Positions 6,450 to 55,208 of a stretch of 64,000 nucleotides of DNA are shown here, in pieces (position 1 is the first letter of the stretch; the number at the start of each line of letters is the position of its first letter). Under the pieces are notes generated by a model that ran no database searches, was not told the DNA's origin, and was given only the letters and a program-made list of their open reading frames with translations. Where the stretch lies: the sequence record MN445184; one strand, written 5' to 3'. Position numbers and translations under genes: made by a program. Source of the stretch: Escherichia phage vB_EcoA_4HA11.

Positions 6450-6450
6450 A

Positions 6451-8390: not shown

Positions 8391-8565
8391 AATACGAAAT
8401 CATCTTAGACGCTCTCTGTATGAGAGCAATATTGTTTAATGTTGAAAGAAACCGGGTTAAGCTCTGTGTGTTCTAAGGCCACAGCTCAAACTTGTATATC
8501 TAAATTTCAGGAATGTTGGATACCAAAAGAAGATCCCGCCTGGTTGAAATTTTACGGAGATAATA

Positions 8566-10467: not shown

Positions 10468-10910
10468 TGGAATATCCACTAACTCATCAGATGCAGCCAA
10501 CAAAAGACACGTGTATGTCAACGTGCCTGGCGATGTTACTTGAGCGTCCGGTCGCCGAGGTTGCTGAAATATGGCATGAAAGTTTCGCGAATTGGGAAAC
10601 CACGATTGGTGACGTTCTTTGTATGGAAGGGGTTCCGTTCTTGCAAGGGAAAGGGGTCAACCAAACTTCCACCATCTATCATGATTATGTTTATCTGCTT
10701 TGCGTGCCAAGTCCAGCAACGCCAGGATTATTGCACCAGATCATCTTAGACACTCGTCATGAAAAACTTGTTGTGTACGACCCACTGAAGGGTACTGGCA
10801 AAAGATATTACACCCTGGATGAAGACAAATCTCCTCTGGCGGTAAAACTTGAAACTTGGATTGTGGACTACATTGTCGATCCATATGAAGTGGGAGGTTA
10901 TCGTGGGTAA
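10464..10910 (+). CDS. papain-like (peptidase C39-like) cysteine peptidase domain protein
   Basis: 148-aa ORF overlapping both topo genes by 4 nt and 1 nt; HQMQPTKDTCMSTCLAMLL (Gln..Cys) and HQIILDTRHEKLVVYDP (His..Asp) resemble C39 catalytic motifs. Confidence 0.4.
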   Translation: MMEYPLTHQMQPTKDTCMSTCLAMLLERPVAEVAEIWHESFANWETTIGDVLCMEGVPFLQGKGVNQTSTIYHDYVYLLCVPSPATPGLLHQIILDTRHEKLVVYDPLKGTGKRYYTLDEDKSPLAVKLETWIVDYIVDPYEVGGYRG

Positions 10911-10911
10911 G

Positions 10912-12243
10912 ATGGTTGCCAAGAGCATTACTGTAACGGACTTTGTCAACACTGACCATAAGCAGTTTTCTGTGGTCAACAGCATCCGTCAAATCCCTCA
11001 GCTGATTGACAGCCTGAAGCCAAGCCAGCGCAAGATACTCTTCGCTGCTCTTGAATACAACAAGGAGGAGATTGTTGACCGCCTTGGCATGTTCGCCGCC
11101 GCTCGCACCAACTACAAGTCTGGTGGTGAGAACATGAGCGGCACTATCGTGAACATGGCTCAGGGGTTCCCAGGAACGAACAACATCCCGTACTTTGACC
11201 GCGATGGCCAGTTTGGTTCTATCATGGGGCGTGATGCTTCATCTGCCCGATACATATCCGTCGCTGTATCTGACGTTATCCGCAAGATCTTCCGCAAGGA
11301 GGATGAGGGTATCTTGGAATACAACTACCTTGGTGAAGAAAGGCTGGAGCCGAAGTTCTTTCTGCCCATCCTGCCCATGTTCCTGGTGAATGGGATCAAT
11401 GGTATCGGCACCGGATATTCCACCGACACCCCGTGTCATTGCGTTAAGTCCGTGCTCAGTGCCCTGAGAGCGCTTCTCCGTGGCGAAGATCCGAAAGACT
11501 TAAAACCGTACTGGAACGGCTTCAAAGGAGAGACAGGCTATACTGAGGAAGGAAGAGCATACAGTCGCGGCATCTTCCGTCGCGTCAATGCCACCACCCT
11601 GCATATCACCGAAGTCCCAGTGGGTTGGTTCGCCAAAACCTATGAGACCAAGGTGTTGCTACCTCTGTATAAGGCAGGTATCCTGACCGAGTACGCCAAC
11701 GACACGACGGAAGATGGCTGGGATATCACGGTTGTGTTTAAGCGCGGCGAACTCTCTAAGCTGAGTGACGAGCAGGTTGAGCAGATGTTCAAGCTGTATT
11801 CAGCCACCAAGCCTGTGTGGACAGCATGGGATGAAGACGGTGTTATTCATCGTTATTCTGGTTGGCGGGATATGTTGCTGCCGTTCTTCAATTATCGCCT
11901 GTCACGGTACGAAGACCGTCGCCAGTATCTGTTGAAGGACATGGCAGACAGAATTCGTAAGCTGAACAATCGTGCCCTGTTTATTGCATGGGCTGTGGTG
12001 ACTGACCTACGACGCAGTCTTGATGAGCTGAAGGCATTGTTCCAAACAGACTACCCAGACTTTGATGGTGACCTTGACGAGTTGTTCAAGATGCCTCTGT
12101 CGTCTATTACTCTGGACGCCCGTGAGCGCCTACTGAAGCAGATTGAGAACCTTGAAGCACAGCACAAGGAATTAAGTAAGAAAGAGGACATCGATCTTTA
12201 CACTGAAGACCTTGATGACCTTGAAAAGGCTCTTGGCCTATAA
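10912..12243 (+). CDS. DNA topoisomerase II medium (GyrA-like) subunit, gp52-like
   Basis: SLKPSQRKILFAAL and FDRDGQFGSIMGRDASSARYI resemble gp52/GyrA motifs; start ATG 10912 (or GTG 10903). Confidence 0.8.
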   Translation: MVAKSITVTDFVNTDHKQFSVVNSIRQIPQLIDSLKPSQRKILFAALEYNKEEIVDRLGMFAAARTNYKSGGENMSGTIVNMAQGFPGTNNIPYFDRDGQFGSIMGRDASSARYISVAVSDVIRKIFRKEDEGILEYNYLGEERLEPKFFLPILPMFLVNGINGIGTGYSTDTPCHCVKSVLSALRALLRGEDPKDLKPYWNGFKGETGYTEEGRAYSRGIFRRVNATTLHITEVPVGWFAKTYETKVLLPLYKAGILTEYANDTTEDGWDITVVFKRGELSKLSDEQVEQMFKLYSATKPVWTAWDEDGVIHRYSGWRDMLLPFFNYRLSRYEDRRQYLLKDMADRIRKLNNRALFIAWAVVTDLRRSLDELKALFQTDYPDFDGDLDELFKMPLSSITLDARERLLKQIENLEAQHKELSKKEDIDLYTEDLDDLEKALGL

Positions 12244-12247
12244 CATC

Positions 12248-12265
12248 GGAGGGGTTCGCCCCTCC
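12248..12265 (+). terminator. stable stem-loop GGAGGGG-UUCG-CCCCTCC after topoisomerase gene (terminator or RNA-stability element; no U-tract)
   Basis: perfect 7-bp stem with UUCG tetraloop 4 nt after stop. Confidence 0.35.
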
Positions 12266-12567
12266 TCACCTGGAGGGTTGTGCTATGTTCTATCTCCGTT
12301 CTGAAGCACCTATGGTATTCATCATTTCCTATTTGATTTCCTGGTTCCTCGCTTTATCAAAGAAGAGGTAGCGTTTGGTCTCTATGGTGAGACGGAAGAC
12401 CCAGAGGTCGATGAGTATTACCCAATGTGCGCCCTGAAAGATATCGAGGAAGGGGAAGATGTTGCAATGGTCGGCACCATGCGTTCTTTCAATCTGTTTG
12501 GGCTTGCACTCTTTCCGAAACTGGTTGGTGAACTGCGCCCCTACAATCCTGAAGCCGCTGTAGAGGG

Positions 12568-12885
12568 TTGATCATGCCACAGCTTCTGAGTCCTAAACTT
12601 CTGTCTATGGGTGATTCCCTGTATTTTCACTGCCCTGGATGTGATATACTTCACCCATATCGCATTAAGGGCGAAGTCCAAGGTCCGGCGTGGTCGTGGA
12701 ACAACAATGTCGTTGCTCCTACGTTCACGCCGAGCCTGCTGGTGAATGCATCTGATCTAGCATCACGTTGCCATCTGTTCCTGACCGACGGCAAAATACA
12801 ATTCCTCGGCGACTGTTTCCATGATCTGAAGAACCAGACAGTGGATATGGTCGACATCTCTGAACCTGAAATTTGGATTGAATAG
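12568..12885 (+). CDS. small Cys/His-containing protein (zinc-binding?)
   Basis: 105-aa ORF with HCPGC and CH/H pairs. Confidence 0.45.
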   Translation: MIMPQLLSPKLLSMGDSLYFHCPGCDILHPYRIKGEVQGPAWSWNNNVVAPTFTPSLLVNASDLASRCHLFLTDGKIQFLGDCFHDLKNQTVDMVDISEPEIWIE

Positions 12886-12888
12886 ATT

Positions 12889-13299
12889 ATGAAATTACTT
12901 GGATATTTTCGTGAACTCCCAACGGGAACTGAAGGCAAGTTGTTCTCACAGGTGAAGGGGGATGACATCGGTGATACGATGATTCCCCTGTACACTCGTG
13001 AACTTCCTGCCGAAGGTGCCTGGGAGCGCCGTGTGGTCGCTGCCGCCAACAAATATGGTGACGTGATCGTCGTTGCCGACCGCCACCATAGCAAATTCAT
13101 GAACAGCCAGCTCAAGATCCTGAAAGAAGCAGGCGTCATTAAATCCACCCATACCCGCGAACAGGGTTTCATCGACAACCAGGGCAACTTCCTCACTCGT
13201 GAAGAGGCATGCATCGTAGCCCGTGAAGCTGGACAGATCAATCAGGTGCGCCTGAAGACAACCCCTTTCCGCGAACTCTTTTCCGAAGACCTCTATTGA
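12889..13299 (+). CDS. hypothetical protein
   Basis: 136-aa ORF, 4 nt after previous stop. Confidence 0.5.
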   Translation: MKLLGYFRELPTGTEGKLFSQVKGDDIGDTMIPLYTRELPAEGAWERRVVAAANKYGDVIVVADRHHSKFMNSQLKILKEAGVIKSTHTREQGFIDNQGNFLTREEACIVAREAGQINQVRLKTTPFRELFSEDLY

Positions 13300-13349
13300 A
13301 GAAAAAGGCGGTATTATTACCGCCTCGACCTCTTGTTTGGTAACATCGA

Positions 13350-13592
13350 ATGAGCCCAGAATTTGAAAACCTGTTCGAGCGATGCTTCGAACCAGGTTCT
13401 GTGTCCGGTTACATGGACCGCCTTTGCACTGCCATTGTAATACGCCTTGCTGCCAAGGGTATCGTTGTCAACACCATTATCCGCAATGGGAACAACTTTA
13501 TCATGCAGATGACTGATTATCACCGCCGCACAGGCATCATCCAGGTGTCATGTGTTGACAACAGCATTATTGAATGGAGACAGTACGCATGA
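13350..13592 (+). CDS. hypothetical protein
   Basis: 80-aa ORF. Confidence 0.4.
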   Translation: MSPEFENLFERCFEPGSVSGYMDRLCTAIVIRLAAKGIVVNTIIRNGNNFIMQMTDYHRRTGIIQVSCVDNSIIEWRQYA

Positions 13593-14188
13593 CAACCTAT
13601 GTAATCAATGGCGGCGATTTACTGAAAGCCGCCTGTAGTTTCAATCTGATCGACATCTTTGCCCACGGTGCCAACTGTTGGTCTACCATGGGCGCGGGTA
13701 TTGCCCTGCACATCGGCAACAACTTCCCAGCGCTGCGCGAAGTCGATGCGAACGACCCTCGTGGTCCAGAGCAACGCCTGGGTGGCATGTCCTATGCATT
13801 TGACCACAGCACTGGTGTCTGGGGTGCGAACCTCTACACTCAGTTTTATCCAGGTCCGAACGCTCGCATGCCGTCTGTCATCAGTTCTGTTCAGATGTTG
13901 TTTGAGCAGGTTCACGAAATTGTGGAAGCAACTAAAGACGAAACTGTCTATGTCGGACTGCCTGCTATCGGCTGTGGTATTGGTGGTCTGAACCTCTACA
14001 GTGTAGTGCGCCATATCAATCGAATCTCTGAAAGCGTGTATGAAGAGACCCGCCGTCGTGTCGTCCCAGTCTTCTATATCAGGGAAGGAGACGGATTCGA
14101 TGATGATCTGATGGAACTTTCCCATCTGGACACAGAAGGTATCATGATTGTCGAAGATGAGCAAGAAATCATCGACGAGGAGGGGTGA
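13589..14188 (+). CDS. macro domain protein (ADP-ribose binding/hydrolase fold)
   Basis: ATG 13589 with GGAGA RBS; motifs AHGANCWSTMGAGIALHI and GLPAIGCGIGGL match macro-domain glycine-rich loops; acidic C-tail. Confidence 0.55.
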   Translation: MTTYVINGGDLLKAACSFNLIDIFAHGANCWSTMGAGIALHIGNNFPALREVDANDPRGPEQRLGGMSYAFDHSTGVWGANLYTQFYPGPNARMPSVISSVQMLFEQVHEIVEATKDETVYVGLPAIGCGIGGLNLYSVVRHINRISESVYEETRRRVVPVFYIREGDGFDDDLMELSHLDTEGIMIVEDEQEIIDEEG

Positions 14189-14191
14189 ATA

Positions 14192-14443
14192 ATGATGTGT
14201 GCGTTTGATCAAGAATTTTATAAAAAGGTCAATATTCTAAAACTTGTCATGTCTGGATCTAGTTCGAAAGAAGTATCAGAAATTTATTGTATTTCACAGG
14301 CCAGGGTGAGCCAGATTTTGAGGGAAACTATAGGGTTACTTTGCCCAGAGATAGAAATTAAGCGCGTCAACAAAAAGTTCATTGATGAAAATTATTATAC
14401 AGTAAAAGCCAAAATAAAGTGTTGGGAGAATAAACATGTATAA
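14192..14443 (+). CDS. small HTH DNA-binding protein
   Basis: 83-aa ORF; SSKEVSEIYCISQARVSQILRE helix-turn-helix. Confidence 0.5.
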   Translation: MMCAFDQEFYKKVNILKLVMSGSSSKEVSEIYCISQARVSQILRETIGLLCPEIEIKRVNKKFIDENYYTVKAKIKCWENKHV

Positions 14444-15068
14444 ATCAAATTTTTTGGCTGTGGCCGACAGTGAAACCTTGGGGCGCTGGGATGATGCAGT
14501 CATGCTGTCTTGGGCACACACCATCGCTGACCTGACCAAGCGTTATACTCTTCAGCAGCTGGTTGAGGAGCGCACGACGTTCATTAAGCTGAATGTCAAA
14601 GAGCAGCTCGAACTTGGTCGCGTGAAGGACGCTGGGACGGTAGAATGGTGGTTGGGGGCGGGCAAGCGCAACCCGTGTGATGCGGCTCGCGCCGTCAGTC
14701 TGTACCCGACTGAGCAGGACATCTCTATCTTCCAGCTGGCCGATGAAATCCGCAAGGGTTGTCATCGTCTTGGGGTAGACCCGCGCTCGGTTGACTGGTG
14801 TGATCGCAACCTGTTTGATCTGCGCAAGGCTCAGCACATCATTGAGGTGACGTGTAAGCAGGACTCCAACGAGCCTTGGGATTACCACCACACCTTCGAC
14901 ATCGTGAGCTGGCTGAAGGGTGTTGGGCAACAGGATCGCTACGCTGGTATCAAGGCGTGGGAACTGGAAGGTATGGTCTATCACGACCCTCGTTATGACG
15001 CTGCGCTTGACTGGCTGCGTATTCAGAAGACCATGGAAGATCTGATGGGGCTGGAGGTTGTGGGGTGA
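14436..15068 (+). CDS. DEDD-family 3'-5' exonuclease (DexA-like)
   Basis: FLAVADSETLG (Exo I D-x-E) and C-terminal YHDPRYD motif. Confidence 0.5.
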   Translation: MYKSNFLAVADSETLGRWDDAVMLSWAHTIADLTKRYTLQQLVEERTTFIKLNVKEQLELGRVKDAGTVEWWLGAGKRNPCDAARAVSLYPTEQDISIFQLADEIRKGCHRLGVDPRSVDWCDRNLFDLRKAQHIIEVTCKQDSNEPWDYHHTFDIVSWLKGVGQQDRYAGIKAWELEGMVYHDPRYDAALDWLRIQKTMEDLMGLEVVG

Positions 15069-15367
15069 TTGTATTCACTGTCATCGGTGTGATCGTAACA
15101 GCTGGGGTATTCACAGCCATATTGGGCTACCTGTACTTCATGTTCCTTCATCCGTTATTTCAGGCGTTCAGTCTCACGAATTGGTACTTGGCCTGCCTAA
15201 AGGCCGACGGCGGCGTGAACATGGCCTCTCTTCCTTACTGGCGGCTGGTGGCGCATTACTACTCGGTCGGTGGCTGGCCTGGGGAAAGGACATGGAACTC
15301 TATCGGTGAGTGGTATGGAATAGGTCGATGGCGTATATTCCCTGATGAAGACGATCAAGCCCCGTGA
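15065..15367 (+). CDS. membrane protein
   Basis: 100-aa ORF with N-terminal transmembrane helices. Confidence 0.45.
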   Translation: MIVFTVIGVIVTAGVFTAILGYLYFMFLHPLFQAFSLTNWYLACLKADGGVNMASLPYWRLVAHYYSVGGWPGERTWNSIGEWYGIGRWRIFPDEDDQAP

Positions 15368-15378
15368 GGGCTTTTCTA
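15357..15378 (+). terminator. hairpin AAGCCCCGTGAGGGCTT + TTTC overlapping stop
   Basis: inverted repeat followed by T-run. Confidence 0.5.
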
Positions 15379-15430
15379 TATCCGGGATAGAGTATCATTG
15401 GTTCACCAACGAATCCTCGGGAGAGGCGAT

Positions 15431-15772
15431 ATGAAACGTTCAGTTGTTGTAAATGACATCACGAGATTGATAAACCTTGTCAAAGATGTGTTTCCACAAC
15501 AGGTGGATGTCGAGTATGTTGGGAAGAACGGAAAGTGTTATCAGGTTGCTCTGTTGTTGAAGCACGTGTACCCCCAAGCAGAGATCCATTACAGTCAGAT
15601 TGAAGGCCATGTGTATACTCTGATTGATGGGAATTATTACGACATCGACGGCATCCACTTCAGTGTCCCACCAGACACGTGTTTGCTCGAACATAATAGA
15701 GGCCACAAACCCCATCGCTGGCATAAAGGGTTTGTGAACGTACCGATTTTAGAATGGCTGAGGAAACCATAA
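15431..15772 (+). CDS. hypothetical protein
   Basis: internal ATG 15431 after GGGAGAGG RBS. Confidence 0.45.
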
Positions 15773-16332
15773 TGGCCGGAATTGTAAAGTACCTGGGTGA
15801 CACCCACCTCGGACACAAGAAGATCTTCAAGCCCCGTGGGTTCGACACACAGGAAGCCCACGACGCTGCGGTCATCGACAGTATCTTTCAGGGGCTGAAG
15901 TCTCGAGACGTCCTTGAACTGGCTGGGGACATCTGCTTCATCGGGGCTGAGGGGTTCATTCGCCTGATGCGGGAGGGTGCCAAGCGAAACATTGATGAGT
16001 TTAAGCGACGCCCCGTTCCCGATGACTGGCGTCCGAACTTTATCATCAAGGTGGCACAAGGCAACCATGACAGCTTTAAGATGTTGTTGTCTCTGTATCT
16101 GGACGGCTGGATTAGCTCCTTCGGCGCTATGTATGAACGTGACACGCCTGTTGGCCGTGTGTTGACAACACATGTTCCTTATCAATTAGACCGTTGGGCG
16201 TATAATATCCATGGTCATCTTCACGAAAATATTCGCGAAGAGCGCGAATACCTGAACTGCAGTTGGGAACAATTCAAGCGTCCTGTAACCCTGGCTGAGT
16301 TATTATACACAAATTTAGGAATTGTGTTATGA
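15772..16332 (+). CDS. calcineurin-like metallophosphoesterase
   Basis: GDTHLG, GNHD and HGHLH motifs; ATG 15772 after GAGGAA. Confidence 0.6.
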
Positions 16333-20602: not shown

Positions 20603-21160
20603 ATGAAATATTTTGAGAAATTTCCACTCGTGTGGCATCAATTAATTGGTGTCAAAGAGGATGACCAAGTCCTGTTGCAGAACTTAACACGACGGGTTAT
20701 GGTTGTTAAGAAAATTAGGGACATAGAAGGGCTTCTCCTGCCGTATACTGTTTTCGATGGGGAAACCCCAAGGTCTTTTGCCGAACGCGTCTACGGTTCC
20801 TTCGAGCTGTTTTGGATCCCATGTCTTATCAATGGTATTATGGACATCGCAGAGGACTGGCCAAAACCAGAGCGCCGTATCATTGAAGAACTGACGGCTC
20901 GATACGGCCTTGACGGAATGTGGGATGTGAAATACTACGTTGACGAATTCGGTCATGAAACAGATCCTAGAGCAATACGTTTAGCATATGGCCTTGGTTC
21001 TATGGATGATTCCACGATTATCGCCAACTATGGTCTGACAGGTATTACATATCATGATGATGCTATAAACAAAAACGAAGCCAAACGGAATATTCAGGTT
21101 CTAGACCCAGATTATGTTTCTTCCTTTGTTAATCAGCTGGAACAGGAGCTGACCAAATGA
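20603..21160 (+). CDS. baseplate-associated protein (gp28/gp53-like?)
   Basis: 185-aa ORF inside structural operon; assignment by position only. Confidence 0.3.
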   Translation: MKYFEKFPLVWHQLIGVKEDDQVLLQNLTRRVMVVKKIRDIEGLLLPYTVFDGETPRSFAERVYGSFELFWIPCLINGIMDIAEDWPKPERRIIEELTARYGLDGMWDVKYYVDEFGHETDPRAIRLAYGLGSMDDSTIIANYGLTGITYHDDAINKNEAKRNIQVLDPDYVSSFVNQLEQELTK

Positions 21161-22545
21161 TCGAAAATAAAGAATCCCAGGACGGAATTTTAACTCCGTC
21201 CACAACATTTGATTTGAAATATATGGCGATATTACCACACACGCCTGAAGGCGGTACTCCCAAGCCTTATGACCTTTCATCGTTGTTTCAAGAATTCAAC
21301 GTATATCAGGATCTTGGTCTGGAAGGGAATGCTTCACCGTCGCTGACAGCTAATATTCTGATCAAAGAAGGCTGGGATATATTGGATACAATGCCAATCC
21401 TCGGAGGTGAGGAAGTAGTGGTATCGTTCAAATCACCTGCGGCTTCCGACTACACTACGCTTTCATTGCGAGTCAGTCGGGTGGGGAGAGTTGCTGACGA
21501 ATCGAACTCTTCTTCGAAAAAGGCATTTTGGTTACACTTGGTGACAACAGACGCGTATCGAGATAGCATGTTGCGTAAATCTGTTGGATTAAGCGGTTCT
21601 TATTCTGAGATGGCAGCTAAGATCTTTGAGCAACTGAATTCACGCACCAAATTTGAAGACATAGATCCTTCATATGGGATACAAGAAAGGTTCGCCACCC
21701 CTCTTTGGCCTGTACTTCGCTCCATAGATTATATGGCCAGCCGTGCATATGACGAATTATTCATGCCATTCGTTTTCTATGAAGACTTCACAGGCTATCA
21801 CTTCAAGAGCATGACGACATTGTTCAACCAGGGCAATCAGTCCATGACTGCTGAAGAGAAACAAGAGGCAAGCGCGGAAAAGAAATTCTTCCGTGATCCT
21901 CAAGATGCCCCGTTAATGCAAGACAATAACTTCAACTCCGAACGTTTTATGCGGACGATCATCAAGGCTGAAAAGAAACTGGCGCGTGATCAGTACATGG
22001 CGAATTATCGGGATATCTTGGCAGTGAACGAGCGCGTGTATGACTTTAGTACAAAATCCACGACAGCGACCCAACGCATTTATTCAGAATGGTTTGACAG
22101 CACTGCTCACCTTGATCCGTTCCCTTTGTTCTCGGATCAATTTGATCGTGAAAATGTTCGTTATATCGAGGCACAACCAGATGGAGCTGAACAAATAGAT
22201 TATGCTCGCCGCGTAATAGAATTCAGTCTAGCATCTACGGTTATGCGTTTGCTCGTGGTCGGCGATAACCGCCTGAACGTTGGTCAGGTTTATTATATTG
22301 AAGATTTGTCGAACCGCCCGAAATCTAATGAAAACATTGCCGAGTTAAGTAAGTTATCAACAGGCCATTATATCGTCACAAAGATACGCCACAAGATTTC
22401 ACGCCTGACAAATGATTATCAATGCGTCGCTGAGATTGCCAAAGATAGTATGATCCAGAAGGTCTTACCGCCTCAGACTGGTCAAACTGTGGCTTCTACA
22501 CCAACTCCGACGCCAATAGAGAAAGGACAAGCCCAGAAGGTCTGA
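21157..22545 (+). CDS. baseplate hub-like structural protein (gp27-like?)
   Basis: 462-aa ORF between tube-initiator-like and tape-measure-like genes. Confidence 0.3.
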   Translation: MIENKESQDGILTPSTTFDLKYMAILPHTPEGGTPKPYDLSSLFQEFNVYQDLGLEGNASPSLTANILIKEGWDILDTMPILGGEEVVVSFKSPAASDYTTLSLRVSRVGRVADESNSSSKKAFWLHLVTTDAYRDSMLRKSVGLSGSYSEMAAKIFEQLNSRTKFEDIDPSYGIQERFATPLWPVLRSIDYMASRAYDELFMPFVFYEDFTGYHFKSMTTLFNQGNQSMTAEEKQEASAEKKFFRDPQDAPLMQDNNFNSERFMRTIIKAEKKLARDQYMANYRDILAVNERVYDFSTKSTTATQRIYSEWFDSTAHLDPFPLFSDQFDRENVRYIEAQPDGAEQIDYARRVIEFSLASTVMRLLVVGDNRLNVGQVYYIEDLSNRPKSNENIAELSKLSTGHYIVTKIRHKISRLTNDYQCVAEIAKDSMIQKVLPPQTGQTVASTPTPTPIEKGQAQKV

Positions 22546-22555: not shown

Positions 22556-24496
22556 ATGGCAGATAACAATCAACCGACACCAGGGCAGCAAGACATCGTC
22601 AAGGTTTTGGATAAAATCAAAAAAGAAATGATGGAGCGCAAGCAATTGCGCGCCCAATCCGAGACGAATAAACAGCTCGCAGATGTCAACAAACAACTGC
22701 AATCTCTGAAGACACGCCAGGCGTCTAATCAGGAGCAGAAAGTCCCGCCAATTAAATTCCCATCGGTGAATGATATTGTTGGTGGGTTTGTCCGCGTCAG
22801 TCCTATTTTCACAAGGGATTACAGCACTTGGATGAAAGACACCGTCAGTCTTTCCAAGGACGGAAATGAAGAACTGATGCGAATCGCAACCAAAATAGAA
22901 AAATTTGGCGAAGCGGCGAATGGTCCGGTTGACGACATGTCAGTTGAATATCTTGACATGATATCAGATCAATTGGGCGCGGCCAACGAAGATAGTCTTG
23001 AACGCCTTGATGGATTAAAGGATAAGCTGGCGTTGGTCGGAGGGGAGATCGTAAACCTGACTGACATAATGCTTCAAACGCATAAGGACACGCTGGATTT
23101 CAATAAAGATGCCAGTAACGAAACTGTTACCCGCCTCGACAGCATTGATGACAAATTGGGATACATGAACGAAGATCTTAATGATACTCTGACACGTATC
23201 TATGAAAGTGATCAAAAATATAGAGAAGAAGAGAAATTCCGTCGTGGCGAAGAAGGTAAGGAAAACAAGAACAACCCAGAGGCTGGTTCTATCCCTCCGT
23301 CTGAGCCTAAACAAGATGGTCAATCTTCTGGGTTAGGCGCGGCGCTGGGGGCACTCCTTGGACTGGGTGCGTTAAAACTCCTGATGTCCCCATTAAAACT
23401 TGTTGGTGGCTTCATTAAATTATTCATGGGGTTTGGTGCTGGGATCGGCGGGTTGCTTGCGCCTCTGAAAGCAGCAACCAAGATGCTTCGAGTTGGACCT
23501 CTGGCGTTAATAACATCTGTATTTGAATTCGGTAAAGGTTTCTTTAATGCTAAAGAAATCCTTGGTAAAGCGCAAGTATCGATCGTTGATCGGGTTCAGG
23601 CAGGGATAACAGAGCTGGTCGGTAGTTTCGGGGATCTCGCTGATTGGGTTGCTGAAATATTCGGATGGAACAATGCTGGGTTTGGAAAGGCGTTCCGTGA
23701 ACAAGTGCTGAAAATGACCGAAGCGCCCGTGCGTTGGTTGAACTCGATTGTTGATTGGGTCACCAACGATTTGTTTGCGGGTATCGGGAAGAGTACATCA
23801 CTGACCGAAATCCCTGGTAAACTTGCAGACAACTTACAAGGCCAATTGATAAAATTGGTTGATTGGGTAACGGGCGGGATATCAGGATTGATTGATGATG
23901 GCATGGCGGCTGCAAATAAAGTCGTTGAAGATATGAAGAAAGGATTTGCGGAAAACGTGAAGAAACCATTCTTTAATATGTTGAATGCCATAACCAATGC
24001 CATGTTTGATATCGTGGATAAATTCGTGAGTATCATACCTGATGCTCTGGGTGGTGAAGCAGCCAGGAACAAAATGGCGGAAGCAAGACAGTCTATGCTA
24101 ATCAGCCAAGACGATAAGGCTCCTGAGAATGCGTCTACGCCGCCAAGCAGCCAATCACCAGCACAACCCAATGCCAATATCAGCACGTTAACTCCAATGC
24201 CTTCTGGGGTGTCCTCAGACGCTGTCAACGTTACGGATAGAACTTCACAATTGAAAGACGCATACGCAGGGATTGGGGGAGGTACTCTGGGCGGGGCTTA
24301 TCCGGTTCAAGGAAGAGCAGCCAATAACATCGAAGAAGTTAAATCCGCCTATGCTAACCCGCCAGCCAGTGTTGTGGTTCCAGTACAACAAAATGTGGAC
24401 AACTCGAAGAAAGTCAGTACGACGAACAACTTCAATAGTTCACAGTTGGAGCCGTCCAACCGTACTGATACAGGGCGCATTCTCTGGGATTGGTAA
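22556..24496 (+). CDS. tail tape-measure / baseplate hub protein (gp29-like)
   Basis: 646 aa; N-terminal coiled coil, central glycine-rich hydrophobic stretch (GLGAALGALLGLGALKLL), long helical remainder. Confidence 0.4.
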   Translation: MADNNQPTPGQQDIVKVLDKIKKEMMERKQLRAQSETNKQLADVNKQLQSLKTRQASNQEQKVPPIKFPSVNDIVGGFVRVSPIFTRDYSTWMKDTVSLSKDGNEELMRIATKIEKFGEAANGPVDDMSVEYLDMISDQLGAANEDSLERLDGLKDKLALVGGEIVNLTDIMLQTHKDTLDFNKDASNETVTRLDSIDDKLGYMNEDLNDTLTRIYESDQKYREEEKFRRGEEGKENKNNPEAGSIPPSEPKQDGQSSGLGAALGALLGLGALKLLMSPLKLVGGFIKLFMGFGAGIGGLLAPLKAATKMLRVGPLALITSVFEFGKGFFNAKEILGKAQVSIVDRVQAGITELVGSFGDLADWVAEIFGWNNAGFGKAFREQVLKMTEAPVRWLNSIVDWVTNDLFAGIGKSTSLTEIPGKLADNLQGQLIKLVDWVTGGISGLIDDGMAAANKVVEDMKKGFAENVKKPFFNMLNAITNAMFDIVDKFVSIIPDALGGEAARNKMAEARQSMLISQDDKAPENASTPPSSQSPAQPNANISTLTPMPSGVSSDAVNVTDRTSQLKDAYAGIGGGTLGGAYPVQGRAANNIEEVKSAYANPPASVVVPVQQNVDNSKKVSTTNNFNSSQLEPSNRTDTGRILWDW

Positions 24497-44619: not shown

Positions 44620-45121
44620 TATTGTTCTCCAGTTCATAATCCCGTTCTTTAACATATTCATAAAGACGAGAAGTAATTCGGTCGGCATTGCCTGTGGTAT
44701 TCTTCACAACCCAACCGCTCGTAAGGACATCCATTTTATATCCACAATCATTATCTTGAAAATAACTTTTAATTGATTCAAGCCGACGACGTTTATGAAA
44801 ATATGGTATTAATTCGCCAATGATGACACAATCGGGATAATGCTTATCCAGAGTGTTTATGTCTCGTTGCACCCAAACCGGAATAACATCATCATCTTCA
44901 ATTGGGCTGTACGTTGGATCAACGATAATCACATTGAATCCATAATTCAATAAATCTTTAACTCCCAGCCACCCGAATTTCATATCGGACACGGTCATGG
45001 CGACATTCTTTATCCCCAATTTATTTGCAAAATCTGTGAGTAATACAAAAAAGTCCGTGTTTGCATCCGGATAATTAATTGCGAGTTGCTCCCCCACTTT
45101 ACTGAAACAGAACGCGTGCAT
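44597..45121 (-). CDS. hypothetical protein
   Basis: 174-aa ORF. Confidence 0.4.
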   Translation of the reverse strand: MHAFCFSKVGEQLAINYPDANTDFFVLLTDFANKLGIKNVAMTVSDMKFGWLGVKDLLNYGFNVIIVDPTYSPIEDDDVIPVWVQRDINTLDKHYPDCVIIGELIPYFHKRRRLESIKSYFQDNDCGYKMDVLTSGWVVKNTTGNADRITSRLYEYVKERDYELENNNAKRRTR

Positions 45122-45134
45122 TTTCAGTCCTCGT

Positions 45135-45142
45135 TATAAATA
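45135..45142 (+). promoter_or_regulatory. T4-type late promoter TATAAATA
   Basis: exact octamer about 29 nt upstream of ATG 45171. Confidence 0.5.
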
Positions 45143-45170
45143 CAATTACAATATACCGTGGAGATACATT

Positions 45171-45977
45171 ATGAATTTACCATCATTGCCCAAAACTGAG
45201 AGAACACATAAAAGTGATTTCTGGCCGACTGTGATCAAATACCGCGCCTTTACAGCAGGGCAACAGACCATGTTACTTCAGGTTGCTGATCCGAACACTC
45301 CTATGAGTGAGCGCGTGGCAACATTGGAGCAACTATTTGACAGTTGTGTTGATGCTGGCGTTCCCTTTAGTAAACTGCCAATCGGTGTTACTGAAGAAGT
45401 ATTTTTAAAGATGCGCTGTATATCTATCGGCGAGGTCATGAAGATACGTTACAAATGTAATAACAAAGTTCAAGCCGAAACCAATGAAGGTGGTGAAGAA
45501 CCAGTTTCTGGCCTTAAAGATTGTGGTCAAGAGCTTGTGTTACCGATCCCGCTCAATCAGGTAAAATGCGTGTCCCCAGAAGGCTTCAGGGAGACGTTTG
45601 ATCTACCAGGTGGTTATCATATAAAGATGCGCCAGCCGTCCTTCTCGGATGCCTCAGTGCTTAATGAAGCATCCTCTGTTGAACAAATGATTGCCACCTT
45701 TATCGATTGTCTGTATGACGACGATGGTCAGGTTTGGAAGGTGGAAAATCCGGCTGAACCTGGTATCGATCCAGAAGTTGCTAAAGAACGCCAACGCATT
45801 AAGGATGAATTTGTCAAATGGGTCGGGGACAATATTGAATCTGAGATTGTTCAGGACATTTCGAATGATTTCTTTAAAAAGATTCCGCGTATTCGTTACG
45901 CGACAAAAATTAAATGCCCTTCGTGTGGGAAAGAACACGAAGTCAAATTTAACAGTGTCACCGAGATTTTCATTTAA
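45171..45977 (+). CDS. late protein with C-terminal zinc ribbon; possible baseplate assembly protein
   Basis: 268 aa; CPSCGKEH near C-terminus; late promoter upstream. Confidence 0.4.
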   Translation: MNLPSLPKTERTHKSDFWPTVIKYRAFTAGQQTMLLQVADPNTPMSERVATLEQLFDSCVDAGVPFSKLPIGVTEEVFLKMRCISIGEVMKIRYKCNNKVQAETNEGGEEPVSGLKDCGQELVLPIPLNQVKCVSPEGFRETFDLPGGYHIKMRQPSFSDASVLNEASSVEQMIATFIDCLYDDDGQVWKVENPAEPGIDPEVAKERQRIKDEFVKWVGDNIESEIVQDISNDFFKKIPRIRYATKIKCPSCGKEHEVKFNSVTEIFI

Positions 45978-46126
45978 TTTTTGAAATTGATTTACTCTCC
46001 TATTTTGTGATGTGTGACGAATTAAAGGCACACGGCTATAGCATATTTGAAATCAGTGAATCGATGCCGTGGCATCTTGATTTGCTTACCGAGACACTGA
46101 AAATTAGATTGTCTAAGAAATCTTCC

Positions 46127-46153
46127 AACCCCACGTAATGTGGGGTTTTCTTT
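46127..46153 (+). terminator. intrinsic terminator (AACCCCACGTAATGTGGGGTT + TTCTTTG)
   Basis: perfect hairpin and T-rich tail inside the 45978-46483 gap. Confidence 0.6.
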
Positions 46154-46454
46154 GCTTACCTGTATTACCGTTTAAGAAAGGATTGTTTAACCCGAAATTG
46201 CTATAACACCATTGTTCCTGATGTGAATGTTGTGTAAATCTGTTTTGAATTTGTTTTGAAACAAAAATAATGCTTTTCTACGCATGTTCTGAGGTGTACA
46301 GTATTTTCCTCGCCTTTATGCCTCCATGGCATTGGAATGGGACTGCCTGTCAAGGCGGTGTTACGAGCTTCAGCGAGTAGGAACGAAAAGAATAAAGGTT
46401 GAACGGAAGCAGAGCTTCCTATAATATATTATTCGACAGATTTCAAATCCCCGC

Positions 46455-46462
46455 CATAAATA
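46455..46462 (+). promoter_or_regulatory. late-promoter-like CATAAATA
   Basis: 7 of 8 match to TATAAATA, about 22 nt upstream of ATG 46484. Confidence 0.3.
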
Positions 46463-46483
46463 TCACATGATTCTAATTGACTA

Positions 46484-48109
46484 ATGGGTTTCAATATGTT
46501 AGACAACTTGCGTTGGTTTTACGGGCGCGTTGAAGACGTGAATGATCCCGATCAAAACGGGCGCGTCGCAGTACGCATCTATGGGGTACACACGGAGGAT
46601 ACCACTCTCCTGCCTACAGAATTATTGCCTTGGGGTAAAATGCTTATGCCAGCATCTAACGCCTCCTCGGCAGGTTTAGGCTGGTCTCCGACGGGTATCA
46701 CTGTCGGCTCTGACGTTATGGGGTTTGCTTTGGATGAAGCATATCAGAACATCCGTATTGCATGGGTATGGCCAGCAGCAACACCAACAGATGGGTCAGA
46801 TACAAACCCATTGGCGCTGGGTCAGGTCGTTCAATCTATAGAAAGACAGAAGTATAATGCCGTCGAGAATGTTCCTGTTAAGATTGAGGATGAACCACAA
46901 CCGGATCCACAACCACCAGTAGACGGATATGATCCTGAGAAGTGGATGACCGTGGCTCGTGGGGAATTGGGTGTCAAAGAATATTCTGGTAAGTTCAATA
47001 ACAACCCAAGGATATTGGAATATCATAAGACAACTTCCCTGGGGGCGTCAGAAGATGAAGTTAGTTGGTGTGCGTCGTTTGTCGGATGGGTTCTGATACA
47101 GGCCGGATATACATCAACACGTTCTGCTTTGGCTCGTTCATATTTACAATGGGGGTCTCCTCTGTCAGAACCACGTTACGGCGCTGTTGTAGTGTTCCGG
47201 CGCGGGAACAACCCGACATTCGGTCACGTTGCATTCGTTCAGAAATTTGACGCCAACTACGTTTGGTGTATCGGGGGAAACCAATCCGATTCTGTGAAGG
47301 TGAGCCGTTTTAGCCGCTCATCCGTGTTGGGTTATCGTTGGCCAGGTCCAGCAACTACAGCTTCAGCAGCTCCGGCACAACAAAACGGTAAATGGTCTGA
47401 ACCTATTCCAGATCGTACCCCGAAAGTCCAAGAAACACCGCCTCCTTCTGGTCGTGTTCAGGATATTGACAACACAGGAGAGGTATCGGTTCCTTCGGCT
47501 GGAGGGTCTCGTTATCCATACAACAATGTTATGGCTTCTCGAGCTGGGCATATTATGGAGGTCGATGACACTCCAGGCGGGGAACGTTTGCATTGGATGC
47601 ACTCTTCTGGGTCTTACAAGCAAATGCTTCCTGACGGTGATGTTGTTAATAAATCAGTCAAAGATCATTATGACCTGACGATGTTCGACAAACGTTATTA
47701 TGTGGGGGGTGATCATAACCTGACAATTGGTGGGACTGAAGTACAGCGCAAGAAAGGAGAAGTTTACCACTTACACTCTTCTAACTATTCCAATGTGGTC
47801 GCTGGAACAGCGTTGATGAAATTTTCCCAATTGGCTGAGATACAGGCACAGAACGTGTTGCGTCTCATCTGTGAAATGTTGGAAGTTTCCAATACTTTGA
47901 AAGTGCCTAAAATACTGGCTAGTGAAATAGTTTGTGATAAGTTGTCGGTGGCGCAGACTATTGAAGGCAACATCAAATATGCTGAAGGCGCTGGCCGCGC
48001 CGCCTCACGTGCGGGGGCAACTCCTGTAACAACTACAGGCCCAGGTCCAATTGATATAAAACCGGAGTTAGAGGATAACGGCGGCAATTTTGGTGGTAAA
48101 GGCGCATGA
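46484..48109 (+). CDS. gp5-like baseplate central spike with NlpC/P60-CHAP-like peptidase domain
   Basis: N-terminal VNDPDQNGRVAVRIYGVH (gp5 OB-domain-like); central WCASFVGWV and GHVAFV (Cys/His peptidase motifs); Gly-rich C-terminus. Confidence 0.6.
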   Translation: MGFNMLDNLRWFYGRVEDVNDPDQNGRVAVRIYGVHTEDTTLLPTELLPWGKMLMPASNASSAGLGWSPTGITVGSDVMGFALDEAYQNIRIAWVWPAATPTDGSDTNPLALGQVVQSIERQKYNAVENVPVKIEDEPQPDPQPPVDGYDPEKWMTVARGELGVKEYSGKFNNNPRILEYHKTTSLGASEDEVSWCASFVGWVLIQAGYTSTRSALARSYLQWGSPLSEPRYGAVVVFRRGNNPTFGHVAFVQKFDANYVWCIGGNQSDSVKVSRFSRSSVLGYRWPGPATTASAAPAQQNGKWSEPIPDRTPKVQETPPPSGRVQDIDNTGEVSVPSAGGSRYPYNNVMASRAGHIMEVDDTPGGERLHWMHSSGSYKQMLPDGDVVNKSVKDHYDLTMFDKRYYVGGDHNLTIGGTEVQRKKGEVYHLHSSNYSNVVAGTALMKFSQLAEIQAQNVLRLICEMLEVSNTLKVPKILASEIVCDKLSVAQTIEGNIKYAEGAGRAASRAGATPVTTTGPGPIDIKPELEDNGGNFGGKGA

Positions 48110-48173
48110 TTACACTGGTGAGGGCAGATAATGCCCTCTCGTGCTGGAGAGGCAATATCCAAAGGGGTTTAAC

Positions 48174-48554
48174 ATGAAAGAGTACAAGGACATTGACCTG
48201 AAGTTTGGCATGCATCCGGTCACCAAAGATGTCACTAAGAAAACAGGCATTTATGCTGTACTACAATCTGTGCGTAATATAGTGATGGCGACGGTAGGTG
48301 ATTGGCCGACGTATCCGAGTATTGGGGCGGGGTTGTATACCATGCTGGGAGAAAATACAAATCCCACGATACAGGTCGACGTGAAGAACAAAGTTGAAGA
48401 TGCCATTGCTCTTTTTGAGCCAAGAGCTGAATTGCAATCTGTTGATGTATCATTGTCGGACGATTATCATTCTCTGGGCGTAACCATCACGTTCTATGTG
48501 GTCAACAACCCAGAGCCGATAACAGACACCATATGGTTGAAACGGACAAATTGA
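48174..48554 (+). CDS. gp25-like baseplate wedge protein
   Basis: ATG 48174 after AAGGGG; size and pattern of gp25/lysozyme-like baseplate protein. Confidence 0.55.
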   Translation: MKEYKDIDLKFGMHPVTKDVTKKTGIYAVLQSVRNIVMATVGDWPTYPSIGAGLYTMLGENTNPTIQVDVKNKVEDAIALFEPRAELQSVDVSLSDDYHSLGVTITFYVVNNPEPITDTIWLKRTN

Positions 48555-48893
48555 TTAAAGAACGTCCGTGGCAGAGCATTTTGTCACCAACTCAAAATGA
48601 GTTAATAAACGATATAATATTTTCCCACCCGTTCTGTGGACTATGGTGGTTGGTTTCAGATTAACCACCATACCGTCCAGATTACCTGTCAACACAAATG
48701 TCAGACGGATGCGTAAGACGTTGGTGCCTTCAGAACGCATTATTTGGCAGTCATGGCTATATCCTATTTGCTTTCCCTTTAGAACCAGAGGGATACGGAC
48801 ATTTTCCTTTAACAGAATATCCAAATTTTCAAATAATGGACCTTCCTTTTTGTGAACAGAGTACACTGTTTCTAATATCGGGAATTTGTACAT
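48555..48893 (-). CDS. hypothetical protein
   Basis: 112-aa ORF. Confidence 0.35.
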   Translation of the reverse strand: MYKFPILETVYSVHKKEGPLFENLDILLKENVRIPLVLKGKQIGYSHDCQIMRSEGTNVLRIRLTFVLTGNLDGMVVNLKPTTIVHRTGGKILYRLLTHFELVTKCSATDVL

Positions 48894-48894
48894 A

Positions 48895-49356
48895 TCACGG
48901 CACCAAAGTAATGACGATCATATTGAGTACTGTATCAACCGCGACACCAGAATCTTCTTCATGGATAGTTGATGCACGTAAATGAATGTCAGAAATATAA
49001 TTGTCTATATGCATCGACGTCAAATAAGGACGGTGTTGATACACAGGACGGTTGACCTGAACATATTCACGCAGAATGCTGAATGAAAAGTCTTCACATT
49101 GAGTGGTGTCAATGCGCAAAAATCTTTGAGCATGGCAGGTCTTTAACTCGGTCACTTTCCCCAAATAATGGAGGTCTCCGGATGAACCGATGCGGAACAT
49201 CACGTCTACTTCAGATTTGAAAATTTCGCGTTCAATAAGAGTCGCTGGTGCCCAACAAACTTCTTCCTTGTCTTCTGGGAATAACGTATCGATCACTTCA
49301 GGCAATTGGATGTAACCGAAGTTGTGACGAGGGTTGGTGAGTAATTTGTTGGACAT
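48895..49356 (-). CDS. hypothetical protein
   Basis: 153-aa ORF. Confidence 0.4.
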   Translation of the reverse strand: MSNKLLTNPRHNFGYIQLPEVIDTLFPEDKEEVCWAPATLIEREIFKSEVDVMFRIGSSGDLHYLGKVTELKTCHAQRFLRIDTTQCEDFSFSILREYVQVNRPVYQHRPYLTSMHIDNYISDIHLRASTIHEEDSGVAVDTVLNMIVITLVP

Positions 49357-54413: not shown

Positions 54414-55208
54414 TTAGCAGAAACTCTTGTATGCTGCCGCCAGTTTAGTATCATACTGGTTTTTCGCATATGCCGGACCATTGTACCGACGAGCAAACTC
54501 GGCCCAATTCTTATTCTTCAGGGCTTTCCACATATTGGCGTCAGCTTTGATGAATTTCACAAATGCCAGAAGATGAGCGCGTTCACCAGTCAGGAAATCA
54601 GTGAACATCTCTTTGGCATTTGAATAGCCACAGATTTGGCAGTTGAACCCCATGATCTGGAATAGGCCGTAGGAAGCACTCTCGTAAGCGCAGTCCTCGT
54701 CAAGGGCGATTGCACCCTGAAGGCGTTCCAACTCCGCGTCTCCGCCGATATACCCGCCAGAATTGGGGTTAACCAATGTTGGGTAGAGTTGGTACAGAGC
54801 ATTGGCTCTTGCTTGCCCGAATTTGGCCGTCACCTTTTTGTACATGATGTGGCGCTCAAACAGAGTTTTGATCTTGCCAGTTTTGGTAAAACCCGTGCCA
54901 CGGGATTCTACCTGATTCACAGCTTTCATACTGGCCAGCTCAACACCAAGTTCACGTGCTGCGTCAACCAAGTCCGCTTCGGTCAGATGTTCCTGGTGAG
55001 CGTCTCCAGCGTTGCGGATAGCATAGAAGGTCTTTGGCCCAGCAATACCATCAATAACCAATCCAGCACCTGCCTGAACGGATTTGACGGCATTCTCTGT
55101 TGCCTTACCAAATATGCCATCGGCTGTAAGAGAGAAACCGATTTTGTTGAGGCTTTGTTGAAGTGCTTTGACTTCAGAACCTCGGTTGCCAAGTTTTAGA
55201 ATGGCCAT
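54414..55208 (-). CDS. endolysin: N-terminal peptidoglycan-binding domain plus N-acetylmuramidase-like catalytic domain
   Basis: ATG 55208 after GGAGG; PG_binding_1-like LKLGNRGSEVKALQQSL..DGIFG; C-terminal GLFQIMGFN. Confidence 0.6.
   Translation of the reverse strand: MAILKLGNRGSEVKALQQSLNKIGFSLTADGIFGKATENAVKSVQAGAGLVIDGIAGPKTFYAIRNAGDAHQEHLTEADLVDAARELGVELASMKAVNQVESRGTGFTKTGKIKTLFERHIMYKKVTAKFGQARANALYQLYPTLVNPNSGGYIGGDAELERLQGAIALDEDCAYESASYGLFQIMGFNCQICGYSNAKEMFTDFLTGERAHLLAFVKFIKADANMWKALKNKNWAEFARRYNGPAYAKNQYDTKLAAAYKSFC

Follow-up and report, generated by a model that had tools for sequence, protein, structure and literature searches.

Central spikes of contractile tails and their enzymes

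In bacteriophage T4, the OB domain of gp5 docks the central spike onto the trimeric gp27 hub. In phages of Gram-positive bacteria, CHAP and NlpC/P60 lysins are borne by the virion and are believed to breach the wall as infection begins (Staphylococcus phage HydH5, Kayvirus and enterococcal phages), but these enzymes face a thick wall and reside on other tail proteins, including the tape measure, Tal and separate hub proteins, and are not fused to a gp5-type OB domain and gp5C. T4 gp5 (PDB 1K28, 1WTH, 5IV5), which is encoded in a baseplate gene context and annotated as serving penetration, has a three-part layout with the enzyme placed between two linkers. The centre of the T4 protein is a muramidase (Phage_lysozyme, PF00959, aa 183-310), and the protein also contains Gp5_C octapeptide repeats and Gp5_trimer_C.

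The closest described proteins are the orthologs encoded by Kuttervirus phages, which are 98-100% identical to the protein studied here, share with it the order OB, CHAP/TIGR02594, gp5C and the gp26-like and gp25-like gene neighbours, and differ only in the choice of the start codon (541 vs 537 aa). For the ortholog of phage CBA120, the replacement of the lysozyme by a cysteine peptidase was stated by Kutter et al. (2011, PMC3184105) in almost the same terms as in the earlier note on the present sequence. The entry for PhiSH19 in Hooton et al. (2011) reads "Gp5 OB & CHAP", and the RefSeq note for S118 likewise gives the OB and CHAP architecture. The architecture of this spike is already known, both from the literature since 2011 and from public annotations.

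Spike gene and its genomic context

The window (the whole stretch of DNA analysed, 64,000 nucleotides) is a Kuttervirus (Ackermannviridae) genome belonging to a Vi01-like Salmonella/E. coli phage. The genes and signals relevant to the spike are the following:

46484..48109, + strand: spike gene, 541 aa (open reading frame list; so delimited in the earlier note)
46455..46462, + strand: candidate late promoter CATAAATA, read from the sequence, with one mismatch to the T4-type TATAAATA, 21 nt upstream of the ATG at 46484
45171..45977, + strand: gp26-like baseplate hub subunit, upstream neighbour (Pfam T4_baseplate, E 1e-51; PHROG 150)
48141..48554, + strand: gp25-like baseplate wedge subunit, downstream neighbour (Pfam GPW_gp25, E 1.7e-08; PHROG 261 and 43)
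21157..22545, + strand: probable gp27-like hub protein, 462 aa (PHROG 350 "tail protein", E 1.2e-102)
54414..55208, - strand: endolysin with PG_binding_1 and N-acetylmuramidase domains (Pfam Muramidase PF11860, E 3.8e-58; PG_binding_1, E 2.9e-16)

It seems, with a probability of about 0.8, that the spike gene encodes a homolog of T4 gp5, the central spike or cell-puncturing device of the Kuttervirus contractile tail, and that its CHAP domain acts at entry. The 541-aa product shows 100% amino acid identity to the product of Salmonella phage SFP10 and 98% to that of Vi01, and matches PHROG 430 with an E-value of 5.5e-158. An alternative ATG at 46496 (MLDN...), located four codons downstream of 46484 and yielding 537 aa, is used by most orthologs and in the annotations of S118 and CBA120, and is probably to be preferred as the start. 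For the related phage PhiSboM-AG3, too, a late promoter has been proposed ahead of the gp5 homolog. The Rfam scan of the 500-nt gap upstream of the spike gene gave only a sub-threshold chance match to a snoRNA.

The spike gene is located among baseplate genes, with the gp26-like gene on one side and the gp25-like gene on the other. The 462-aa protein encoded at 21157-22545 gave no match in Pfam; it was labelled gp27-like because its synteny and size agree with those of LIMEstone1 ORF26, annotated as "T4 gp27", a protein of 52.6 kDa whose gene adjoins the tape measure gene. By analogy with T4, this protein is the probable docking partner of the spike OB domain. The LIMEstone1 ortholog of the spike (ORF61) was found in virions by ESI-MS/MS, the ViI ortholog is a virion component according to Kutter et al. 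(2011, PMC3184105), and the virions of Sajous1 contain a "tail associated lysozyme". Homology, gene context and the published mass spectrometry of orthologs together show that the spike is located in the virion.

Domain architecture of the spike

The parsing of the protein gave six consecutive segments, with an enzyme placed between two linkers as in T4 gp5:

46505..46774, + strand: N-terminal OB-fold domain, aa ~8-97 (Pfam Gp5_OB, alignment to T4 gp5)
46775..46942, + strand: linker 1, aa 98-153, rich in Pro, Asp and Glu (EDEPQPDPQPPVDGYD; composition, pLDDT < 50)
46943..47341, + strand: central TIGR02594/CHAP domain, aa 154-286, of the NlpC/P60 papain-like superfamily, a predicted hydrolase of peptidoglycan peptide stems
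47348..47497, + strand: linker 2, aa 289-338, Pro-rich (16.7% Pro, pLDDT < 50)
47498..47818, + strand: gp5C-like segment, aa 339-445, a homolog of the initial portion of the C-terminal triple-stranded beta-helix of T4 gp5
47819..48106, + strand: C-terminal 96 residues specific to the lineage, aa 446-541, amphipathic and poor in Gly at first, then a tail rich in Gly, Pro and Ala

The earlier note had likened the N-terminus (VNDPDQNGRVAVRIYGVH, aa 19-36) to the gp5 OB domain and had read WCASFVGWV (aa 195-203) and GHVAFV (aa 247-252) as motifs of a cysteine peptidase occupying the place of the T4 lysozyme. All three stretches were located in the protein, and the domain parsing, which the note had proposed as a check, revealed a gp5 OB domain, then a complete TIGR02594/CHAP domain and then a gp5C-like segment.

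The likeness of the N-terminus to gp5 is confirmed both by Pfam and by alignment to T4 structures. Gp5_OB was recognised at aa 39-98 (E 6.2e-10, above the curated cut-off), the match spanning profile positions 11-70 of 144, so the spike OB domain is shorter than that of T4; Phage_base_V gave a weak match at aa 14-39. The region aligns to aa 6-91 of T4 gp5 with domain E-values of ~1e-11 to 1e-14, and in the full-length AF2 model it is predicted to form beta strands with pLDDT of ~75-80. The structures of T4 gp5 (1k28, 1wth, 1pdl) align only to aa 7-87 and 341-436 of the spike, the middle remaining unmatched, and the homology to T4 gp5 comprises the OB domain and ~95 residues at the start of the needle. 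In the phmmer comparison with T4 gp5 chains, spike aa 341-436 corresponded to T4 aa 384-477 (E ~1e-15 per domain), and tblastn with T4 gp5 as a query gave a match at 47513-47800 of the window (E 2e-16). The full-length AF2 monomer model has pLDDT < 50 beyond aa 289 and is usable for the OB and CHAP domains only.

Linker 1, where Pro makes up 16% of aa 101-150, gave no family match in Pfam. The position of linker 2 is equivalent to that of the T4 gp5 linker containing the Ser351/Ala352 maturation cleavage site, and BLASTP aligned T4 S351-A352 opposite S294-A295 of the spike. S294 is not kept among orthologs, and thus a gp5-like maturation cleavage in linker 2 is not to be inferred.

Central domain

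The unmatched middle of the spike was assigned to TIGR02594 over nearly the entire profile (NCBIfam, positions 2-132 of 132, E 8.5e-39, 132.9 bits, cut-off 70.55) and to Pfam CHAP (PF05257, E 3.3e-10, 40.7 bits, cut-off 26). Like the Gp5_OB match, both lie far beyond chance. The AF2 model of this domain alone, with pLDDT of 95.7 and pTM of 0.91, has a papain-like alpha+beta fold. The Foldseek search of the PDB placed Acd24020, Acd33800, MepS, LytE and CHAPK at the top, and all significant fold matches were NlpC/P60 or CHAP wall hydrolases (7cfl, 9ubf, 8xud MepS, 8i2e LytE, 4csh CHAPK); the matches to their catalytic domains had a probability of 1.00 and TM scores of 0.55-0.67, and glycosidases were absent from the matches. 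In BFVD, the best Foldseek matches were phage tail lysins and CHAP/TIGR02594 endolysins. The sequence similarity to solved enzymes is weak (E 0.01-0.1, 11-20% identity): the profile search of the PDB gave weak yet consistent NlpC/P60 matches, and the single-sequence search gave only noise (WrbA, E 0.13; C51 peptidase, E 0.18). The family models, the structural model and both Foldseek searches bear out the proposed cysteine-peptidase (CHAP/NlpC-P60) nature of the centre.

A lysozyme hidden in the centre of the spike was ruled out, having found no support in Pfam, in the PDB or in the fold. Pfam revealed no lysozyme families in the spike even at E <= 1; as for membership of the T4-type lysozymes (PF00959/GH24), the lysozyme segment of T4 gp5 remained unaligned and Foldseek returned no lysozyme folds. 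The outcomes named in the earlier note as contrary to its claim, a lysozyme or glycosidase in the centre or the lack of a peptidase fold, were not observed. The module swap relative to T4 is borne out as well, since the T4 Phage_lysozyme domain (a muramidase) occupies the slot equivalent to that of the spike CHAP domain (a cysteine hydrolase).

The central domain is the best-conserved region of the spike, with a mean pairwise identity of 81% vs 53-68% elsewhere and with 63 of the 138 alignment columns invariant. Three elements of its predicted active centre were assigned from conservation and position in the model:

47069..47071, + strand: Cys196 codon, predicted catalytic nucleophile
47225..47227, + strand: His248 codon, predicted catalytic base
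47273..47284, + strand: GGNQ motif, aa 264-267

Cys196 is invariant in all 23 gp5-like relatives, down to 31% identity, and its position is at least 90% conserved among 63 standalone TIGR02594 proteins, while His248 is invariant in both sets. In the GGNQ motif, all four residues (G264, G265, N266, Q267) are invariant across the gp5-like set, while the standalone set keeps G and N throughout and conserves Q at 90% or more. In the domain model, Cys196 is located at the N-terminus of a helix (47-57 in domain-model numbering) and corresponds in the alignment to the Cys of "DCS", an NlpC/P60 motif present in CwlO and 4hpe; His248 is located at the start of a strand (98-106) and is matched to the His of "HVG" in NlpC/P60 structures. 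The modelled positions of Cys196 and His248, at a helix N-terminus and on a beta strand, are those expected for papain-like enzymes. The GGNQ motif is placed at the end of the strand following the His strand; within it, Asn266 is the candidate for the remaining, polar member of the triad.

Proposed role of the spike enzyme

By analogy with T4, the protein would be a trimer anchored through its OB domains to the gp27-like hub, where the tail tube ends, and the gp5C-like segment would form the start of a trimeric beta-helical needle. The TIGR02594/CHAP hydrolase, with Cys196, His248 and probably Asn266 in its active centre, would replace the T4 lysozyme and be held on the two flexible Pro-rich linkers; for this step, the identity of the domain, its fold and the conservation of the residues were shown in the present analysis. 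Contraction of the sheath would drive the needle through the outer membrane, whereupon the three enzyme domains would cut the peptide stems or cross-links of peptidoglycan locally, making a hole for the tail tube. Local cutting of peptide stems during tail penetration is the most likely function of the spike enzyme. Peptidoglycan is indicated as the substrate by the fusion of standalone TIGR02594 relatives to peptidoglycan-binding modules. Full-text literature searches yielded no enzyme assay on the spike protein or any ortholog, and no cryo-EM structure of an Ackermannviridae baseplate came up in them.

The endopeptidase suggested in the earlier note is one candidate activity, as CHAP and NlpC/P60 domains comprise both endopeptidases and N-acetylmuramoyl-L-alanine amidases. 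The central domain might have the same location and role and yet be an amidase that strips stems from the glycan, a reading that we consider unlikely, although it deserves more weight than the other alternatives. Among the fold matches are CHAP domains of Gram-positive endolysins, enzymes whose specificity varies, and the spike sequence offers nothing to tell an amidase from an endopeptidase. However, NlpC/P60 D,L- or D,D-endopeptidases (Acd24020, MepS, LytE) have the best E-values among the fold matches, TIGR02594 effectors of the T6SS are treated in the literature together with NlpC/P60 peptidases, and Kutter et al. (2011, PMC3184105) cite the family as a glutamate-specific amidohydrolase, i.e., of the gamma-D-Glu-mDAP type. 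Even among the nearest structures the specificity varies, including gamma-D-Glu-mDAP endopeptidases (LytE, CwlO), the D,D-endopeptidase MepS and the CHAP domain of LysK, and so the bond cut by the spike enzyme is not readable from the fold.

It is improbable that an active enzyme serves mainly in lysis from without at high multiplicity, as an aid to lysis or in other remodelling of the wall, even though the annotation of T4 gp5 gives "lysis from without" beside penetration and the CHAP/TIGR02594 family also supplies endolysins. The domain is joined in one polypeptide to the OB domain before it and the needle after it, in a virion protein detected in particles; neither an export signal nor linkage to a holin gene is recognised for the spike, and the same phage encodes a dedicated muramidase endolysin with a peptidoglycan-binding domain. 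The S118 ortholog of the latter is annotated as an endolysin; the phage's own endolysin is a glycosidase encoded by a separate gene and belongs to an enzyme class unlike that of the spike's cysteine hydrolase. Since the lysis enzyme is a separate muramidase, the entry and exit enzymes would attack different bonds. In T4, by contrast, the spike enzyme is akin to the phage's own endolysin (Kutter et al. 2011, PMC3184105), a kinship lacking here, where the endolysin is a muramidase unrelated to the spike enzyme.

A non-catalytic structural or peptidoglycan-binding remnant is the least probable reading and a very improbable one, for although the Cys of the standalone family is not strictly invariant and inactive members may exist, the spike-type relatives retain Cys196, His248 and Asn266 without exception in the most conserved segment of the protein, and the TIGR02594 model is matched in full length and far above its cut-off.

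C-terminal region

Beyond the gp5C-like segment, the spike departs from T4 gp5. The C-terminus, described in the earlier note as Gly-rich, is so only in its last 41 residues (24% Gly), whereas aa 446-500 are Gly-poor (1.8%). The Pfam search of aa 446-541 at E <= 10 gave nothing, neither the Gp5_C repeat nor Gp5_trimer_C, both of which are present in T4 gp5, and the PDB sequence search with the C-terminal 96-203 residues gave no match, as did Pfam. Another difference from T4 concerns gp5.4/PAAR, no homolog of which was found in the window by tblastn (E > 8). The region of aa 446-541 is conserved only within Ackermannviridae-like relatives, with a mean identity of 53-60%. A structurally distinct tip formed by these residues is a tentative suggestion, rather doubtful at present; it may, for example, consist of a short bundle of helices and, after it, a flexible Gly-rich tail and breach the membrane in a manner unlike that of the T4 needle with PAAR. 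An equally tentative and separate suggestion is that the division of bonds between the spike CHAP domain at entry and the muramidase endolysin at exit is a deliberate one.

Relatives of the enzyme module

Standalone TIGR02594/CHAP proteins (137-250 aa) show up to 57% identity to the central domain and conserve the Cys, the His and GGNQ. Unlike the spike, they carry PG_binding_1, SH3_3 or LysM targeting modules or none at all, whereas the spike enzyme would be targeted mechanically, via its insertion in the tail spike. The TIGR02594 effectors of the T6SS differ in being VgrG-associated cargo and not part of the spike. Kutter et al. (2011, PMC3184105) described the origin of the spike enzyme module as "bacterial rather than phage". 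In the present study, one standalone relative (L004) was found in a phage-like string of genes and another (L005) in a bacterial chromosomal context, and because both contexts occur, the origin of the module is not assignable. The genes downstream of these two are unrelated, which rules out a shared downstream partner (an immunity protein or a spanin) of standalone TIGR02594 genes.

Spike proteins of this type illustrate a general rule that the enzyme on gp5-type contractile-tail spikes is interchangeable, the variants including lysozyme, CHAP, M15 peptidases and SLT. Such swapping bears on the adaptation of phages to differing cell walls, and it is relevant to the search for antibacterials against Salmonella and E. 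coli among virion-associated lysins. Four more distant metagenomic relatives (P0025, P0028, P0041, P0049) likewise have an N-terminal Gp5_OB followed by a wall-degrading enzyme, which differs from that of the spike: Peptidase_M15_4, Peptidase_M15_3, SLT with CHAP, or M15_3 with Phage_lysozyme2. These relatives show that the OB-borne enzyme is interchangeable and that CHAP is one version of several.

The spike gene and its domain composition

The genome under study is that of a Vi01-like phage of the genus Kuttervirus, family Ackermannviridae. Across positions 45000-49000 it shares 99.3% identity with Salmonella phages SeHz-1, S115 and S118, and across 30000-54999 it shares 97-98% with PhaxI, SeHz-1 and BSP101. 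The gene of the gp5-like baseplate central spike occupies exactly the coordinates assigned to it in the earlier note and is located between two baseplate genes:

45171..45977, gp26-like baseplate hub gene, adjoining the spike gene on one side
46484..48109, + strand, spike ORF, 541 aa
48141..48554, gp25-like wedge gene, adjoining the spike gene on the other side

The start codon is ambiguous, as two in-frame ATGs lie four codons apart at 46484 (541 aa) and 46496 (537 aa). Translation is annotated from the latter (MLDN...) in S118 and CBA120, and nearly all homologs begin there too. No strong Shine-Dalgarno sequence precedes either ATG; that at 46496 has a weak GGG about 9 nt upstream.

The three motifs quoted in the earlier note were all found in the product: VNDPDQNGRVAVRIYGVH (aa 19-36), WCASFVGWV (aa 195-203) and GHVAFV (aa 247-252). 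The Pfam search revealed Gp5_OB at aa 39-98 (E 6.2e-10) and CHAP at aa 191-266 (E 3.3e-10), both over the curated cut-offs, and no lysozyme family at E ≤ 1. The NCBIfam profile TIGR02594 is matched end to end, its positions 2-132 of 132 aligning with aa 154-286; the score is 132.9 bits, where the cut-off is 70.55. T4 gp5 comprises Gp5_OB (33-173), Phage_lysozyme (183-310), Gp5_C repeats and Gp5_trimer_C. The T4 gp5 chains of the PDB (1k28, 1wth, 1pdl/5iv5) align only to spike aa ~7-87 and ~341-436, and the middle of the spike aligned neither to these chains nor, in a BLASTP comparison, to T4 gp5. The central slot thus holds an enzyme of another class, with flanking modules that are homologous to those of T4 gp5. 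Both the gp5-like OB N-terminus and the module swap relative to T4, proposed earlier, are borne out, with CHAP/TIGR02594 standing instead of Phage_lysozyme.

Fold and active site of the enzyme domain

The AlphaFold model of the full-length spike monomer is confident in the OB and central domains only; therefore, the central domain was modelled alone, after 141 relatives had been gathered and 63 aligned (pLDDT 95.7, pTM 0.91). The top Foldseek PDB matches were papain-like wall hydrolases only (probability 1.00, TM 0.55-0.67), with no glycosidase among the PDB matches to the domain:

7cfl, C. difficile autolysin Acd24020
9ubf, C. difficile autolysin Acd33800
8xud, E. coli MepS
8i2e, B. subtilis LytE
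4csh, CHAP domain of LysK
4olk, CHAP domain of LysGH15

The Foldseek search of viral models matched the domain to the spike of Serratia phage 3M, to further "tail associated lysozymes" and to endolysins of the CHAP/TIGR02594 type. The predicted catalytic residues Cys196 and His248, together with G264-G265-N266-Q267, are invariant in 23 spike-type relatives with identity down to 31%. In the standalone family (63-sequence alignment), conservation is complete for the His, Gly and Asn and at least 90% for the Cys. In the domain model, a helix opens at Cys196 and a beta-strand at His248, a papain-like placement. A profile search paired these residues with the "DCS" Cys and "HVG" His of NlpC/P60 CwlO and 4hpe; this alignment is weak (E 0.01-0.1) and agrees with the fold search. 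Neither a lysozyme fold nor the lack of a peptidase fold, either of which would have contradicted the earlier note, was seen in the centre of the spike, and the suggested cysteine-peptidase centre is supported.

Mean pairwise identity is 81% in the enzyme domain (63/138 columns invariant) and 53-68% elsewhere in the spike. This conservation, the highest anywhere in the spike, argues that the predicted enzyme is functional. The nearest solved structures differ in bond specificity and share just 11-20% sequence identity with the central domain. The earlier interpretation is supported, save for the term "endopeptidase": the predicted enzyme may be an endopeptidase or an amidase.

C-terminal part and spike tip

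Unlike T4 gp5, the last 96 spike residues carry no Gp5_C and Gp5_trimer_C signatures, and they gave no Pfam or PDB match. The "Gly-rich C-terminus" noted earlier holds for the final 41 residues (aa 501-541, 24% Gly) but not for aa 446-500 (1.8% Gly). The T4 gp5 cleavage residues S351/A352 align with spike S294/A295 (BLASTP); Ser294 varies among orthologs. No PAAR/gp5.4 homolog was detectable within the 64-kb window. In the alignment of spike relatives, the orthologs P0014-P0022, from phages of the Limestonevirus, Erwinia and Serratia types, possess an extra C-terminal extension of ~70-75 aa, ending in a conserved "...ILRQ.G.KP....SNG..WE" motif. The Kuttervirus spike has no such extension, so the spike tip varies within the family.

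Proposed functioning of the spike

We infer the trimerisation of the spike, its enzyme activity and timing as follows. By analogy with T4 gp5, the OB domain would dock the spike trimer on a gp27-like hub, and the gp5C-like segment would be the beginning of the needle. Three CHAP domains would be held on Pro-rich linkers and, most likely, would cleave the peptide stems or cross-links of the peptidoglycan locally after the needle passes the outer membrane. Two further genes match LIMEstone1 genes:

21157-22545, + strand, "tail protein" of 462 aa (PHROG 350), matching in size and synteny LIMEstone1 ORF26, called T4 gp27-like
22556-24496, + strand, 646-aa protein (PHROG 3799, function unknown), matching in size and synteny LIMEstone1 ORF27 (tape measure)

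The 462-aa product is probably the gp27-like hub, by synteny with LIMEstone1; it has no Pfam match, and Pfam does not reveal a relationship to gp27. Both genes adjoin gp48-like and gp53-like genes. The spike orthologs of LIMEstone1 (ORF61, by ESI-MS/MS) and, according to Kutter 2011 (PMC3184105), of ViI are virion components, and a "tail associated lysozyme" is present in Sajous1 virions.

The endolysin is encoded elsewhere:

54414..55208, - strand, endolysin, PG_binding_1 + N-acetylmuramidase (PF11860, E 3.8e-58)

As the endolysin is an N-acetylmuramidase, the entry and exit enzymes differ in class, unlike those of T4. The lysis enzyme of CBA120 was still unidentified in Kutter 2011 (PMC3184105); later annotations name this gene as endolysin.

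Enzyme swapping in related spikes

The OB + CHAP architecture is already published and annotated. In Hooton et al. 2011, the PhiSH19 protein of 541 aa is listed as "Gp5 OB family & CHAP domain", the RefSeq note on phage S118 also gives Gp5 OB and CHAP, and a section of Kutter et al. 2011 (Virol J 8:430, PMC3184105) is titled "Baseplate Lysozyme". The literature search found no published enzymology and no published baseplate structure for any Ackermannviridae spike; biochemical confirmation and a structure of the divergent tip are what would still add value.

The CHAP-for-lysozyme swap is one instance of a broader pattern. More distant Gp5_OB proteins carry Peptidase_M15_4, Peptidase_M15_3, SLT+CHAP, M15_3+Phage_lysozyme2 or T4-type lysozyme, and OB+CHAP spikes occur beyond Ackermannviridae, e.g., in Rhizobium phage RL2RES and the metagenomic P0025, P0027 and P0030. 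P0025 (644 aa) is a dual-enzyme form of the spike, with an SLT transglycosylase (aa 165-277) and CHAP (aa 359-443) in tandem and a weak Gp5_trimer_C match. TIGR02594 domains are also known as VgrG-associated T6SS effectors, a parallel in a related bacterial injection machine.

Adjacent sequences

At its C-terminus (aa 240-263), the gp26-like hub protein contains a CPSCGKEH-type motif with weak Pfam Zn-ribbon matches (E ~0.06-0.12), which suggests a small zinc-binding element. The gap of ~500 nt between this gene and the spike gene (45978-46483) is unusually long and includes:

46007..46138, 43-aa ORF, ending inside the hairpin
46127-46147, strong terminator-like hairpin followed by a T-run
near 46421, late-promoter-like TATAATATA, just upstream of the spike gene
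46455-46462, late-promoter-like CATAAATA, just upstream of the spike gene

No convincing ORF was found in the ~300 nt after the hairpin, and the Rfam scan of the gap gave nothing above threshold. The base composition of the window shows a step, with G+C of ~49-51% in 1-16000 and ~42-47% in 16001-64000; judged by synteny with S118, the first 16 kb correspond to the rIIA/rIIB/topoisomerase region.
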